Part shown: positions 34,619-39,991 of the stretch, one piece after another
How positions within the stretch are numbered: the stretch's first letter is position 1
How the letters are laid out: the number at the start of each line of letters is the position of its first letter
NCBI GenBank assembly: GCA_048941015.1
Contig: JBHLNZ010000028.1
Span: forward strand, 1-39,991
Direction of reading: 5' to 3'
Source: Promethearchaeota archaeon
Lineage (GTDB): Archaea; Asgardarchaeota; Lokiarchaeia; Sigyniarchaeales; SOKP01
Length of the DNA: 39,991 nucleotides
Translations under genes and position numbers: made by a program
Notes under the pieces: generated by a model
What the model was told of the DNA's origin: nothing
Seen by the model: only the letters and a program-made list of their open reading frames with translations
Database searches by the model: none

Positions 34619-36031
34619 ATGTCCAAAAAATATGAAAATTGGATTGAAGATAACCAACGAAAACTTATTGAAATTAGCGATAAAATTTGGGAATTTGCTG
34701 AAGTTGGGTTTGAAGAGTACAAATCATCAACCTTATTAGCAGACACATTAGAGAAATCAGGATTTTCTATTGAAAAAAATGTTGCAGGAATGCCTACAGC
34801 ATTTTATGCCAGTTATGGAAATGAAAAACCAGTAATTGCTATTTTAGGTGAATATGACGCATTACCAGGGTTAAGCCAAATTAAAGAACCAATAAAAAAA
34901 CCTTTAAAGGAAGGAGCATCTGGTCATGGATGTGGACACAATTTATTAGGTACTGGGTCACTTGGAGCTGTTCTTGCAGTAAAAGAAGCTATTATTTCAG
35001 GGGACGCTAAAGGTACAATTAGGTATTATGGTTGCCCTGCTGAGGAAAAATTCAATAGTAAGGGTTTTATGATTAATGCAGGAGTTTTTAAAGATGTAGA
35101 TATTACTCTTTCATGGCATCCTGCATTTCTGAATGCAATAAATGATGTTTCATTATTAGCTATAAATTCTGTAAAATTTAAATTCTTGGGTCGTTCTGCT
35201 CATGCTGCTTTTGATCCCCAGAATGGACGGAGTGCATTAGATGCTGTTGAATTAATGAATGTTGGTGTGAATTATTTAAGAGAACATATTATTCCTGATG
35301 CTAGAATCCATTATGTAATTACAAATGGTGGTGAAGTCCCTAATGTTGTTCCAGAAAAAGCCGAAGTATATTACTTCATTAGAGCTCCTAAACGTCCTTC
35401 AGTTGAGGAAGTTTATAACCGTGTTATTAAAATAGCCGAAGGAGCAGCCTTAATGACAGATACTAAAATGGAAATAAATTTTTTAGGAGGTATGTATAAT
35501 CCTTTACATACTGAGGCAGTTGGTGAAGTACTTCTTTCTAAAATGAAATTAGTAGGTGCACCTAAGTATAACAAAGAAGAGAAGGAATTTGCACAAAAGC
35601 TCAAAAAAACTTTGCCCCCTGGTTCAATGGAGGCTTTTTCTCGCCTTATACCTGATAATTTTCGTGAAATGGCTAAACAAATTCTTGATCACCCTTTGAA
35701 TCGAATGATACTTCCTGGACTTGGAAAAGGAAAAGTCATACCTGGTTCTTCAGATGTTTCTGATGTTTCAAGAGTTACACCTTTAGGTGAAATTGCTACT
35801 ACTTGTCAAATTATGGGGTCCCCAGGACACTCTTGGCAAAATGTGTGCACATCTGGTACGAGTATAGGCCATAAAGGAATGATAATGGCAGCAAAAGTAT
35901 TAGCTTTATCCGCTATAGAATTTATGAACAATCCTGAACTAGTCATTAAAGCAAAAAAAGCATTTGAAGAGAAAATTAAAGATAAACCTTATATTTCACC
36001 ATTTCCAGAAGGATTTAAACCACCTTTTTAA
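34619..36031 (+). CDS. M20 family amidohydrolase (AbgB / p-aminobenzoyl-glutamate hydrolase B-like)
   Basis: GEYDALPGL, GHGCGHN, GCPAEE, WHP, GRSALDAVELMN, HSWQ. Confidence 0.9.
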   Translation: MSKKYENWIEDNQRKLIEISDKIWEFAEVGFEEYKSSTLLADTLEKSGFSIEKNVAGMPTAFYASYGNEKPVIAILGEYDALPGLSQIKEPIKKPLKEGASGHGCGHNLLGTGSLGAVLAVKEAIISGDAKGTIRYYGCPAEEKFNSKGFMINAGVFKDVDITLSWHPAFLNAINDVSLLAINSVKFKFLGRSAHAAFDPQNGRSALDAVELMNVGVNYLREHIIPDARIHYVITNGGEVPNVVPEKAEVYYFIRAPKRPSVEEVYNRVIKIAEGAALMTDTKMEINFLGGMYNPLHTEAVGEVLLSKMKLVGAPKYNKEEKEFAQKLKKTLPPGSMEAFSRLIPDNFREMAKQILDHPLNRMILPGLGKGKVIPGSSDVSDVSRVTPLGEIATTCQIMGSPGHSWQNVCTSGTSIGHKGMIMAAKVLALSAIEFMNNPELVIKAKKAFEEKIKDKPYISPFPEGFKPPF

Positions 36032-36100
36032 ATAAAAGGAAGAATTTCCCTTCTAATACAGAAGATAAAAATTATATATTTCAATATTTTCCAAATTTGT

Positions 36101-36122
36101 TACAAAACACTCGCGTTTTGTA
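36101..36122. terminator. Inverted repeat between convergent genes (possible terminator or binding site)
   Basis: TACAAAAC-ACTCGC-GTTTTGTA, a perfect 8-bp stem. Confidence 0.3.
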
Positions 36123-36236
36123 CTATCGCGAGAAGAGAGAATTAAATTAATTCGAGAACTTTTAAAGTCCTAATATTCAAAAAATAGAGTTAATAATAAA
36201 AAAAAAAATTTGAACTTTTATTATTTATTCTTTTTC

Positions 36237-36551
36237 TTAACTTTCAAGCTTCTTTTTAAGCTTTATCAAGATGGGGAGAGCTTTAGCAAGTTCCATTGCA
36301 GGAGAATTTTTGATAAGTTTAAATACCCCTGGTTTAGCCATTCTCCATACATTAGTGTCTTGCACTAACTGTTCTTCATTTTCTGCTTCTGATATTGTAA
36401 TTCCCCAATAATCTCCAGTAGATACATACCATCCTAATTGTTTAACTCCTTCTGTAGGATAAAGGTTCTTGCTTAAGACTTTTTGAGCCATTTCAGCTAA
36501 TTCTGCTGGGTCAAAATTTTCATTCAATTCCCAATACGTAATAAATAACAT
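36237..36551 (-). CDS. Small alpha/beta protein (DUF3303 / GYD-like)
   Basis: MLFITYWEL...GVKQLGWY...WGITISEAE...W...SPAM pattern; GAGGTG upstream. Confidence 0.65.
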   Translation of the reverse strand: MLFITYWELNENFDPAELAEMAQKVLSKNLYPTEGVKQLGWYVSTGDYWGITISEAENEEQLVQDTNVWRMAKPGVFKLIKNSPAMELAKALPILIKLKKKLES

Positions 36552-36860
36552 TCTTTAATTTACACCTCTATTAAATTCCGAGAAAATCTATTGATATTTA
36601 AGGATTATAATTCATTCTTTAAACACCAATAAAGTAGAAAATGATAATTAATTATTTAAGTATTTTCCAAGTTTGTCAAATCTAAAACAAATCTTTTTTG
36701 AAAAATTGGATTAAATTTTACCAATCACTCTGAATAGAATTGATTTAATAAAGCATTTATTAATTATTATATAGTTTGTAAAGCCATAAGGGATATTAAA
36801 TCGAAATATATAAATCTATGAAATTTATTATTTAGAAAGATAATTATTGGAATATCTAGA

Positions 36861-37823
36861 ATGACCGAAGATTTTCAAAAAATAAAGATTAAAAAGTTGG
36901 AATTGGAATTAGAATTAAAAAAACAAGAACTATCCGAACAGCTCGATAAAATAGACCAACTAGAAAATGCAATTATGGAGCTAGAAGCAATCATATCTAA
37001 ACCTGACAATGATTCATATTTACAATTTCAATTAAAAGAAATGGAGAAAAATTATCGAGAACTGAAAGATAAGACGGGTTTACTAAGGTTAGAAAACATA
37101 AGATTAAAACAAGAGTGTGATGAAGCTAAAAATAATCCAACTTTTCTTCCTATTGTTGAAGAAGAATCACAATCTACGAATTTAAAACCTTTAAAGACTT
37201 CAAAATTAGAAGATAATAGTGAGAATCTAAACCAAGAAGAAAATACTAAAAGGATCCTTATAAAATGTCCAGAATGCGAGAATCAAAAATTCTTGAAAGT
37301 TCCATTAAAAGTAATAAACCAAAGTAATAATGTAACAACAATTAATGTTCCCTCTGGAATAATTTGTTCTCATAATTTTCAGGTTTTTGTTGATAAGTTT
37401 TTTTCTATAAGAGGATATCAATTAGCTGATTTTGAGTTTTCTAAAATTGAATATTACGAAAGTAATATTCCATCATCTCCAGAGTTTCAAGAAATTATTA
37501 ACATTTTAAGGAGATCTGTAGATGATCGGGAAATACTTGGGACTGCAATCTTTACTATTGAAGGGAGAGTTTTATATACATCAATTCCACAAAAAACATT
37601 ACTTGACACAATTAGGGAATTCGAAATTAGGAATGAAAAACATGTGCACAGTGTTATAAAAATGTTTCTTGAATTAAAGAATCAACAAAAAGTGTGTTCA
37701 GAGACTTTAGAAATTCAAGGAATAGAATTTATACTGGTCTTAATTTTTTCCGAACTTGTGAATTTTGGGATAGGAAATATGTTAATGAGAGATATTGTAA
37801 AAAAATTAAAAGTTCCCGGTTAA
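36861..37823 (+). CDS. Coiled-coil + zinc-binding + roadblock/LAMTOR-like domain protein
   Basis: Heptad-rich N-terminal ~90 aa; CPEC...CSH...VDKFFSIRGYQ; C-terminal ILGTAIFTIEGRVLYTS...FILVLIF...VNFGIGNMLMRDIVKKL with roadblock-like topology. Confidence 0.72.
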   Translation: MTEDFQKIKIKKLELELELKKQELSEQLDKIDQLENAIMELEAIISKPDNDSYLQFQLKEMEKNYRELKDKTGLLRLENIRLKQECDEAKNNPTFLPIVEEESQSTNLKPLKTSKLEDNSENLNQEENTKRILIKCPECENQKFLKVPLKVINQSNNVTTINVPSGIICSHNFQVFVDKFFSIRGYQLADFEFSKIEYYESNIPSSPEFQEIINILRRSVDDREILGTAIFTIEGRVLYTSIPQKTLLDTIREFEIRNEKHVHSVIKMFLELKNQQKVCSETLEIQGIEFILVLIFSELVNFGIGNMLMRDIVKKLKVPG

Positions 37824-37825
37824 AT

Positions 37826-38698
37826 TCATAATAGAAAAGAAAGCAGGATTTCACCTTTTATTAGATATGAAACTATATTATTAAAATCTTTAGCATAATT
37901 GTCTGATTTTTGAAGGTTTTGTAACACAGATTTCCTATTATCTGAATATTTATTAGATAATTTAGGATTTATAGGTATTATCCCTAAAAATGAAGGGACG
38001 AGAAATAAAGCTAACATCTCTAACGAATAAAAATAGTAATTTTCTAAGTATGGTTTTATAGCTTGAATTATTTTTTCAATGTTTGGGCTAGATTTTTTAA
38101 TTTTAAAAATCAGAAAGATATTATCCCTTTCTTTTAAATCTAATTTTGTATAATTATATTGTGGTATTTCTTGATTTTCCATTATTTTCCGATATATATC
38201 AATCATTTCAGAATTTGATACTTGTTTTTCTCCAATCTTAAGTGGACATGATTTAAATTTATCGTCTCCTTGTAAGAAAAAAATTTCTTTAACATCTTCA
38301 ACTTCTACATTTTCAATAAGTCTGTTTAATTCAAGATACTCAAGTAACTTATTTGTAAAGATCTCTTTCATAGTTTGATTATTTGGATTACTAATCGCAT
38401 AAAATAAATTACGCCGTAAAAATAAGTCTAGGTTATCAAAGGTCTCATTTTCTTCAAAAATGATACCTAAAATTCCTTCCCTCTGACTTCTACGATCTAA
38501 ATTTCCTGTAAAACATGAAATACTTCTATGTTGCCTTAATTTAATTTCAAGATGGGATGATGTTTTAAATCCTGCATGAGACATATAGAGTTTCGAAATA
38601 AACTCTTGAGGTAGCTTTATAGGGCTTGTATAATAAGAGCATTTAATTTCAGGACCTTTTATTTCGTCATGAATCAATAAAAAAATTCCTTTTGGCAA
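37826..38698 (-). CDS. Longin/uDENN-like domain protein
   Basis: N-terminal GIFLLIHDEIKGPEI hairpin; TTG start preceded by AGGAGG; lies 21 bp downstream of the GTPase gene on the same strand. Confidence 0.65.
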   Translation of the reverse strand: MPKGIFLLIHDEIKGPEIKCSYYTSPIKLPQEFISKLYMSHAGFKTSSHLEIKLRQHRSISCFTGNLDRRSQREGILGIIFEENETFDNLDLFLRRNLFYAISNPNNQTMKEIFTNKLLEYLELNRLIENVEVEDVKEIFFLQGDDKFKSCPLKIGEKQVSNSEMIDIYRKIMENQEIPQYNYTKLDLKERDNIFLIFKIKKSSPNIEKIIQAIKPYLENYYFYSLEMLALFLVPSFLGIIPINPKLSNKYSDNRKSVLQNLQKSDNYAKDFNNIVSYLIKGEILLSFLL

Positions 38699-38719
38699 TT
38701 TTATAATATCCTCCTATTA

Positions 38720-39913
38720 TTACCATAAATTTCTAATTTGATATGAGACTTGCTTTCCCATATTTTCAATTTCATTTAAAATCTCTCTATTATAATCCGG
38801 TGAATTCAAAATAATAACCAAGAGTAAATCTTGATTTACATTACTTAAATAAAGATATTTTGATTCCGTTTTCAATTTAAATTCTTTAAAACTTTCTAAT
38901 TTCATTTCATTTGTTACTTTATCTATAGTTATAATCAATAATGAAAGCATTCCAACAACAATAACTTCATCAGAGGGATTTAAAGTCGAACCACATGCTA
39001 ATCCTGTTGACTTCTCCAGAAGTACAGCATCTTTAACTCCATGATGATTTTTCAGTAAATTTAATATTGAATTTATAAAAGTCGATTTAGGTGAAATTAC
39101 TCTTATGAGTTCACTCCACGCAGAAAATAGAGATTGACCAAATATAGAGGTTAAATGAAAAGAAATTTCATGAGATATATTTTGAGATAAAAGATTCTTC
39201 AGATATGAGGAAACTGATTCCTTATCATTAACTAGATCAATTTTATGTAAAAATATAATAAGCTTTGCGTTAGGGTTAAATGCAAGAATTTGTTTTGCAC
39301 TCCATTCAAACTCAGATTTAGCTTGTTCAAATCGATCCACATCAGTCACATCTACAACATACAATAATATGGATGCTTTTTTAAATATATTTTCTCTTAG
39401 AACTCCGTGATACTCATCAAGATATTGCTGTTGCCCTCCTAAATCCCATATCATTGGTTTTGACATTGATCCAATACTGTATTCTTTATAAGCGATTCCT
39501 TTAGTAGCTGCTGAATGCAAAAGTTCCCAAGGTTTCTTTCCTTCAAAAACACGTTCATAGATACATGTTTTTCCTGCATTTGAAAGTCCTATTAAAATTA
39601 TTTTTTTCATATCATCAGACGGAGTTTTTTCAAACTCCCCAAGCATTGTTGATACTGTGCCTTCAATAAAACTAATATCGCTATCGGGGAAAATTGTTTT
39701 TAACTCTTCTTTTATAAGCCAGTCTATTCTATTACGTGGAATGCTTAAGCCTTTGCTTTCAAAGAAGAATTCAACCTCATTTGTAATACTTTCCTTAATT
39801 AGTCCCGTTTTTTCATAGACTAATTGATCCCTATACCAAATATTTAAGTTGAATATATTTTCTCCTGAGCTAGTAACTCTTAAATTAAATAATGTACCGG
39901 GAATCTTTTTCAT
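38720..39913 (-). CDS. Rag/Gtr1-like small GTPase with C-terminal roadblock domain and N-terminal extension
   Basis: G1 GLSNAGKT, G2 AAT, G3 WDLGGQ, RENIF, LYVVD, G4 HKID, G5 TSIF, SLFSAWS, then a roadblock-like tail (VKDAVLLEKSTGL...LLLVII). Confidence 0.88.
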   Translation of the reverse strand: MKKIPGTLFNLRVTSSGENIFNLNIWYRDQLVYEKTGLIKESITNEVEFFFESKGLSIPRNRIDWLIKEELKTIFPDSDISFIEGTVSTMLGEFEKTPSDDMKKIILIGLSNAGKTCIYERVFEGKKPWELLHSAATKGIAYKEYSIGSMSKPMIWDLGGQQQYLDEYHGVLRENIFKKASILLYVVDVTDVDRFEQAKSEFEWSAKQILAFNPNAKLIIFLHKIDLVNDKESVSSYLKNLLSQNISHEISFHLTSIFGQSLFSAWSELIRVISPKSTFINSILNLLKNHHGVKDAVLLEKSTGLACGSTLNPSDEVIVVGMLSLLIITIDKVTNEMKLESFKEFKLKTESKYLYLSNVNQDLLLVIILNSPDYNREILNEIENMGKQVSYQIRNLW

Positions 39914-39991
39914 AGTTCACTTCCTTTATCGTTTAATTGAGAAGCTTTCTTTAAGCAATTATTAATCATATCTCTGAATTTTTGTACATTT

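Follow-up and report, generated by a model that had tools for sequence, protein, structure and literature searches.

Among eukaryotic GTPase-activating proteins (GAPs) built on a longin domain, NPRL2 has been proposed to act on RagA through an arginine finger. Folliculin (FLCN) acts on RagC by the same arginine-finger mechanism (PMC9473554), and the arginine finger of SMCR8, which acts on Arf1, points at BeF3 in the solved complex (PMC8213707). A glycine-proline (GP) pair together with the arginine has been described as the signature of GAP longins versus non-GAP longins, with the GP motif lying at the end of the β1-β2 loop or at the start of β2 (PMC12290439). The same source reports that Asgard longins carry the GP pair and the arginine 'in the same structural arrangement' as FLCN, NPRL2 and SMCR8 do, and treats the target GTPases of these Asgard longins as an open question, and NPRL2-like longins have been reported in Asgard archaea by Liu et al. 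(bioRxiv 10.1101/2020.10.19.343400). Here, we describe a gene pair on a 39,991-nucleotide (nt) stretch of DNA from a Promethearchaeota archaeon (contig JBHLNZ010000028.1 of assembly GCA_048941015.1; this whole stretch is hereafter the window), in which a 290-amino-acid (aa) longin protein carrying both motifs is encoded directly downstream of a 397-aa Rag/Gtr-family GTPase, and is a candidate GAP for it.

The longin protein resembles NPRL2/Npr2 (of GATOR1/SEACIT, GAP for RagA/Gtr1) in having another domain after the N-terminal longin domain, in its pairing with a Rag/Gtr GTPase, in the presence of GP and a loop arginine in both proteins (motifs as defined in PMC12290439), and in that GATOR1 chains are its best structure matches. 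It differs in having no detectable sequence relation to NPRL2, in its length of 290 aa, and in that no NPRL3- or DEPDC5-like partner is encoded nearby. With folliculin (FLCN-FNIP2, or Lst7-Lst4 in yeast; the RagC/Gtr2 GAP) it shares the longin fold, the GP motif, and an arginine (R69) that falls on Arg164 via chained alignments. However, no DENN domain was identified in the longin protein, there is no FNIP-like partner, and the Pfam Folliculin family (PF11704) does not match it. SMCR8 (of C9orf72-SMCR8-WDR41, an Arf GAP acting via Arg147) belongs to the same longin-GAP class, whereas its substrate is Arf rather than Rag, it is a longin-DENN heterodimer, and its structural match is lower (7o2w_A). 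The published Asgard FLCN/SMCR8-type longins (PMC12290439) and NPRL2-like longins (Liu et al.) have the same motif pair, in the same places and in the same superphylum. The longin protein is assigned to this class, although the present family is narrow, missed by Pfam Folliculin, and fixed beside a Rag-like GTPase gene. As a kind, GP/arginine Asgard longins are already known, and the present family may be among the 15 Asgard longins of PMC12290439. A prokaryotic small GTPase encoded beside a roadblock/longin-superfamily GAP is also found in MglA-MglB of Myxococcus, from which this locus differs in that the GTPase is Rag-type and has its own roadblock domain. MglB is not known to supply an arginine, and works by shifting residues of MglA itself into position.

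GTPase genes of the Asgard archaeon MK-D1 were reported to lie generally outside operons with longin/roadblock genes (Tran et al., PMC10933270), so that regulators could not be matched to GTPases by genome layout. The present family is an exception to this rule, forming a two-protein, operon-defined pair. Our literature search found no report of this family, of the fixed Rag/Gtr pairing, or of a joint loss of finger and neighbour, and the words 'operon' and 'synteny' are absent from the available part of PMC12290439. Throughout, PMC9473554, PMC9481161, PMC10933270, PMC12290439 and Liu et al. are cited for the available part of their text. With this pair, ordinary biochemistry can test whether the regulation of Rag GTPases by longin GAPs began in archaea, and finger-less paralogues that have no GTPase neighbour provide natural negative controls.

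Joint conservation and loss of the GP motif and R69

The gene pair and the elements of the longin domain are laid out in the window as follows.

38720..39913, minus strand: Rag/Gtr-family GTPase gene, 397 aa, from Pfam, Protein Data Bank (PDB) relatives and orthologue columns
38699..38719, minus strand: spacer of 21 nt, from the GTPase stop to the longin start
37826-38698, minus strand: longin-protein gene, TTG start, 290 aa
38309..38698, minus strand: longin domain, residues 1-130, from AlphaFold2 topology and structure matches
38651..38656, minus strand: G15-P16, GP motif at the start of strand 2, from conservation and alignment to Asgard Pfam-Folliculin proteins
38477-38509, minus strand: β4-β5 loop, residues 64-74
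38492..38494, minus strand: R69, candidate arginine finger in the β4-β5 loop, from conservation, joint loss with GP and chained alignment
38480..38491, minus strand: R70 to R73, arginine not conserved at either position

Translation of the longin open reading frame (ORF; 37826-38698, minus strand) opens MPKGIFLLIHDEIKGPEI. It contains the peptides on which the initial annotation had built its proposal of an arginine finger, with the numbering given there: GIFLLIHDEIKGPEI (residues 4-18), RSISCFTG (58-65), NLDRRSQR (66-73), and EGILGIIF (74-81). That proposal was placed at 38477-38698, which corresponds to codons 1-74; EGILGIIF extends 21 nt beyond.

Conservation was counted over the 134 family members, out of 152 stored proteins, in which the N-terminal domain is covered. 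Position 15 is glycine in 133 of them and position 16 proline in 130. The three loop arginines named as possible fingers fared differently: R69 is arginine in 130 of 134 members, whereas position 70 holds arginine in 109 (threonine in 11, lysine in 6, others in 8) and position 73 is mostly lysine (112 members, against arginine in 8, methionine in 8, and others in 6). R70 and R73 were thus ruled out as the finger, and R69 alone qualifies because neither of the others is conserved as arginine. The preceding residue, D68, is conserved in 119 of 134 members, and is replaced by alanine in 12 members that retain R69.

In 130 members GP and R69 occur together, in four both are missing, and one never occurs without the other. 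Joint loss was placed on a maximum-likelihood tree of 28 members, a diverse subset of the 134 picked by hand with near-identical proteins omitted. Three of the finger-less proteins each pair with a finger-bearing sister, and the fourth stands on a branch of its own, such that four changes are needed to account for finger loss, at least three of which are forced by well-supported branches. The branches of the finger-less members are long. The two motifs lie about 53 residues apart, have repeatedly been lost together, and behave as one functional site. By topology, the β1-β2 and β4-β5 loops of a longin sheet would emerge side by side, which agrees with the account of the GP motif in PMC12290439. 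The original observation is beyond chance, since R69 is kept in 130 of 134 members, and is kept or lost strictly together with G15-P16.

Gene neighbourhoods of finger-bearing and finger-less copies

Among contigs taken from one genome per species, a Rag-like gene stands directly upstream of the longin gene in 36 of 37 loci. Adding finds from genomes and metagenomes, and removing duplicates, gave 45 distinct loci. Of the 42 finger-bearing loci, 41 have the Rag-like gene immediately upstream on the same strand (40, plus L011, which is cut by the contig end), with a spacer of 11-32 nt between the GTPase and longin genes wherever this neighbour is present. At the finger-less loci (L068, L092 and L093), it is directly upstream in none of three, with 524 to 3514 nt of upstream sequence available there. 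GTPase-longin pairs persist down to 31-34% identity for the longin and 41-46% for the GTPase.

One finger-less locus retains part of the neighbourhood. In L092 (7-3885), a receptor-like gene is followed after 3 nt by the finger-less longin gene, and the GTPase gene is missing. The gene upstream of the L092 longin is homologous (37-47% identity, at most loci) to the large ORF that precedes the Rag-like gene elsewhere, and therefore the GTPase gene has been lost from the place that it occupies elsewhere, between these two genes. A 5-Mb genome (G282; L063, L068, L069 and L070) contains three separate pairs of GTPase and finger-bearing longin, together with one orphan finger-less longin, which, by analogy with NPRL3 or FNIP, could be a partner that lacks catalytic activity.

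In the window, a Shine-Dalgarno-like AGGAGG at 38710-38715 lies 11 nt ahead of the longin TTG, and a scan of 36000-39991 for terminators returned no terminator-like sites. The receptor-like gene stop overlaps the GTPase start codon (ATGA).

The Rag/Gtr-family GTPase neighbour

The neighbouring protein matches Pfam Gtr1_RagA over residues 104-308 (E 5.1e-39; 134.5 bits versus a cut-off of 22) and Robl_LC7, as a C-terminal roadblock domain, over residues 282-368 (E 5.6e-8; 32.9 bits versus a cut-off of 23). Its best solved relative by sequence is yeast Gtr1, aligned over both domains (residues 99-379, E 2.6e-22), with RagC (E 1.5e-20) and RagA (E 1.5e-18) also matched, and solved Lokiarchaeal Rag-like GTPases scoring lower (E 3.4e-13 and 2.5e-12). 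GTPase motifs are present as a P-loop (GLSNAGKT, residues 109-116), T137, WDLGGQ (156-161), and the G4 motif HKID (223-226). The WDLGGQ with its G3 glutamine had been pointed out from the outset, and it does occupy residues 156-161 of the ORF at 38720..39913 (minus strand). Across 29 orthologues, the P-loop, T137, WDLGGQ with Q161, and H223-K224-D226 are invariant (29/29). Given these Pfam and PDB matches and the invariant motifs, the neighbour is a genuine Rag/Gtr-family GTPase with its catalytic glutamine.

The GTPase also has an N-terminal extension of about 100 aa (residues 1-100; 39613-39913, minus strand) that eukaryotic Rags lack. Within this extension, P59, N61 and R62 (IPxNR) are invariant, even in GTPase paralogues at 41-46% identity. 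A search of the ESM Atlas with these N-terminal 100 aa gave no usable match. From the sequence, we considered whether the invariant R62 of this extension might supply an arginine in cis.

Family and fold of the longin protein

Searching a collection of 5.8 billion proteins returned 209 family members at E up to 0.001. Among the 120 of these that were listed, lengths are 254-307 aa, and those with a named source are hypothetical proteins of Asgard metagenome-assembled genomes. Of 301 sampled genomes of the phylum, 26 contain full-length matches to a family hidden Markov model, and the source genome has a single copy. No fused longin-GTPase forms of the family were found among proteins of 509-2000 aa, which is weak evidence by the search's own grading.

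The AlphaFold2 model of the 290-aa protein has a mean predicted local distance difference test (pLDDT) score of 82.8 and a predicted template modelling score of 0.83. The initial annotation had guessed that a longin hairpin opens the protein and that the arginine-rich stretch is the β4-β5 loop, and the model agrees, with the GP pair at the β1-β2 turn. Its elements are β1 (residues 4-11), β2 (15-23), α1 (31-41), β3 (50-54), β4 (57-63), β5 (75-82), α2 (90-103), and α3 (107-130), with G15-P16 forming the first residues of strand 2. Structure searches likewise identify the N-terminal domain as a longin. VIA-align placed GATOR1 chains first for this domain (9o5a_H and 9o5d_D, Z 11.1; root-mean-square deviation (rmsd) 3.0-3.1 over 120-123 aligned residues), and residues 1-132 also matched a Lokiarchaeal longin (8yqg_B, Z 10.8), a further GATOR1 chain (8fw5_B, Z 10.5), and a SEA-complex chain (8adl_S, Z 10.2). 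The VAMP7 longin scored Z 10.2-10.5, Lst4 Z 9.2, folliculin-complex chains Z 9.2 and 8.5 (6nzd_H being 8.5), and 7o2w_A Z 8.3. With the whole protein in Foldseek, GATOR1 chains again ranked first (E 9.1e-5 to 1.8e-4; best alignment 288 columns, TM score 0.30), and chains of Mon1-Ccz1 and Fuzzy-Inturned were also high in the ranking. By their length, the matched GATOR1 chains are probably NPRL2, the search output giving entry titles only. Full-length superposition by VIA on 8fw5_C aligned 168 residues over residues 1-289 (Z 9.3, rmsd 5.0).

Possible equivalence of R69 to folliculin Arg164

In the active FLCN complex, the catalytic finger Arg164 is seen at BeF3 (PMC9473554). Pfam Folliculin matches other proteins in 113 of the 301 Asgard genomes, 51 of them over the curated cut-off, and in eight such Asgard proteins both GP and an ARG motif are invariant. 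Aligning the family alignment A3 with these eight proteins in hhalign (E 0.0023, 79 columns, probability 12.6%) placed G15-P16 on G17-P18, and R69 on the invariant R82. With the less diverse alignment A1, only the GP part was reproduced (E 0.0012, probability 19.6%). The second link is made by one of the Pfam-Folliculin proteins (L083; 418 aa, Pfam Folliculin E 2.6e-8), in which R82 falls on Arg164 when aligned to residues 149-200 of human folliculin (phmmer E 0.87), with a plain match of FFIKD..ARG. The suggestion that a loop arginine sits at the folliculin finger position is borne out to this extent, in that R69, R82 of L083, and FLCN Arg164 align in a chain that is consistent and statistically weak, and R69 may thus correspond to Arg164. 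For NPRL2, no comparable bridge to Arg78 was found, since Pfam NPR2 (PF06218) does not match the longin protein, and none of the 301 Asgard genomes exceeds its cut-off.

Two more ORFs of the source genome (483 and 477 aa) match Pfam Folliculin weakly, at G000:C33:9960-10127 (E 2.4e-4) and G000:C1:20449-20613 (E 1.0e-3), and may encode FLCN-type longin proteins.

Mechanism and alternatives

The reading that we place first, and for which we judge the chances to be evenly balanced, is that the 290-aa protein is a trans arginine-finger GAP for the adjacent Rag/Gtr-like GTPase. As an activator, the longin protein would be cognate to this GTPase, whose gene lies 21 nt upstream within a single transcription unit. 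The longin domain would dock on the switch regions of the GTP-bound GTPase, and R69, on the flexible β4-β5 loop beside the G15-P16 turn, would be inserted into the nucleotide pocket. There, R69 would neutralise the developing charge, and the GTPase's own Q161 would position the water. Speculating from gene order, the C-terminal domain, a zinc-ribbon-roadblock protein, and a receptor-like protein encoded at the locus would probably assemble or localise the pair. The interpretation put forward in the initial annotation is, as a whole, partly supported.

Several observations weigh against this assignment. No sequence search ties the longin protein to NPRL2, FLCN or SMCR8: it has no relevant Pfam matches (E up to 1; for 17 members at E up to 10), a PDB sequence search gave none at E up to 10, and a profile search of 1.84 billion representatives found 33 proteins, all from its own narrow family. 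The alignments that bridge R69 to Arg164 are weak (hhalign and phmmer values above), and the R69 loop is modelled with moderate confidence only (pLDDT 67 for block 61-70). Fold scores do not set GAP longins apart from SNARE and adaptor longins (Z 11.1 versus 10.5-10.8), and because scores tie with SNARE longins within one Z unit, the fold is that of a longin, not specifically of a GAP longin. One finger-bearing copy, L034, has no GTPase neighbour, and is the exception among the 42. Eukaryotic longin GAPs are heterodimers with a second, finger-less longin; the module contains no second longin gene, and the source genome has one family copy, while finger-less longin paralogues occur in other genomes. 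Finally, in a distant lineage (L064, L065 and L067), a protein of about 340 aa, the first 95-115 residues of which match the family longin domain, also follows a Rag-like GTPase-roadblock gene, one without the N-terminal extension, and this protein has GV in place of GP and lysine in place of R69. Because this lineage pairs such a longin with a Rag-like gene, the pairing does not strictly need the finger.

That last observation favours a role of the longin protein as a platform, exchange factor or scaffold for the GTPase, in which R69 and GP would shape a binding surface outside the active site. Longin/roadblock dimers are mainly guanine nucleotide exchange factors and platforms (PMC10933270), as in Mon1-Ccz1, TRAPP and Ragulator, and Liu et al. 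(bioRxiv 10.1101/2020.10.19.343400) proposed an exchange-factor role for another Asgard longin/DENN module. The high Foldseek ranking of Mon1-Ccz1 and Fuzzy-Inturned chains points the same way. However, GP plus arginine has been reported for GAP longins and not for the longins of FNIP2, NPRL3, adaptins, TRAPP or DENND proteins (PMC12290439), and the joint loss of both motifs and the GTPase neighbour fits a single shared active-site role, such that we consider a platform or exchange factor unlikely.

Other members of the module

Further genes and domains of the locus are as follows.

37829..38302, minus strand: C-terminal alpha/beta domain of the longin protein, residues 133-290, from the AlphaFold2 model
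36861..37823, plus strand: zinc-ribbon-roadblock gene, 320 aa, convergent, 2 nt from the end of the longin gene
39910..39990, minus strand: last 26 codons and stop of a gene for a receptor-like membrane protein, the remainder lying beyond the contig end

The C-terminal domain of the longin protein is modelled confidently, with pLDDT blocks of 81-96 from residue 161 onward.

Of 37 loci, 32 have the zinc-ribbon-roadblock gene adjacent to the longin gene, 31 of them in convergent orientation. Its 320-aa product comprises a coiled coil (~1-100), a zinc-ribbon-like part, and a C-terminal roadblock domain (~207-320), with C136, C139, C169 and H171 invariant. Sequence searches with it gave only coiled-coil and zinc-ribbon noise. 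A long form of about 335-350 aa with an N-terminal coiled coil occurs at L005-L012, L015, L027, L035 and L037, and a short form of about 222 aa without the coiled coil at L002, L014 and others. An AlphaFold2 model of residues 125-320 reached pLDDT 83.4, and its roadblock domain matched LAMTOR p14/MP1 best in VIA (2zl1_B, Z 11.0, rmsd 2.2, 106/116 residues), followed by an archaeal (MK-D1) roadblock (Z 10.2), MglB (Z 9.7), and the RagC C-terminal domain (Z 9.5).

Since MglB is a roadblock GAP (PMC9481161) and stands among these top matches, and since the gene is conserved beside the pair, the zinc-ribbon-roadblock protein could in principle be the GAP of the module in the manner of MglB, with the longin protein as an effector or adaptor reading the GTP state. 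We regard this as improbable, as the best matches (LAMTOR p14/MP1 and archaeal roadblocks) are scaffolds, no such gene accompanies the more divergent pairs at L028, L062, L063, L069 and L070, where GTPase and finger-bearing longin remain, and the pattern of GP and R69 would be left unexplained.

At 27 of the 30 de-duplicated loci, the Rag-like start is preceded within 300 nt by the end of a large ORF on the same strand. These ORFs are homologous to each other, and contain a hydrophobic segment about 250-270 residues before their end. The receptor-like tail in the window, NVQKFRDMINNCLKKASQLNDKGSEL, matches their C-termini. Conservation of R69 and GP for a role outside the active site altogether, whether in loop folding (through a D68-R69 pair), homodimerisation, or binding of the receptor tail or a small ligand, is very improbable, for although D68 is also well conserved and the receptor-like protein's conserved cytosolic tail of about 250 aa needs a partner, R69 appears equivalent to FLCN Arg164, the D68 to alanine change leaves R69 in place in 12 members, and where the finger is missing the GTPase gene is missing too, even with the receptor-like gene still in place (L092).

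Were the longin protein the arginine-finger GAP of its neighbour, the module as a whole (receptor-like protein, Rag-type GTPase, longin GAP, and zinc-ribbon roadblock scaffold) might be a direct forerunner of the eukaryotic Rag-GATOR1/folliculin-Ragulator switch, a possibility that we hold to be doubtful. If true, inactivation of Rag by a longin finger, and the link between this inactivation and a membrane sensor, are older than eukaryotes and older than TOR.

Adjoining the zinc-ribbon-roadblock gene, a 104-aa ORF (36237-36551, minus strand) matches Pfam DUF3303 (E 8.2e-6), and was not seen in related loci with the queries used. One locus with a complete Asgard-type module (L028) is filed under a bacterial name, Candidatus Deferrimicrobium sp., probably because the source assembly was binned wrongly. 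At the distant-lineage loci, the ~340-aa protein's C-terminal part (ILYHMRQLKEH stretch) looks winged-helix-like by eye, and the sequence upstream of the gene pair encodes the final portion of a membrane protein, which has a hydrophobic segment and a tail of basic character.

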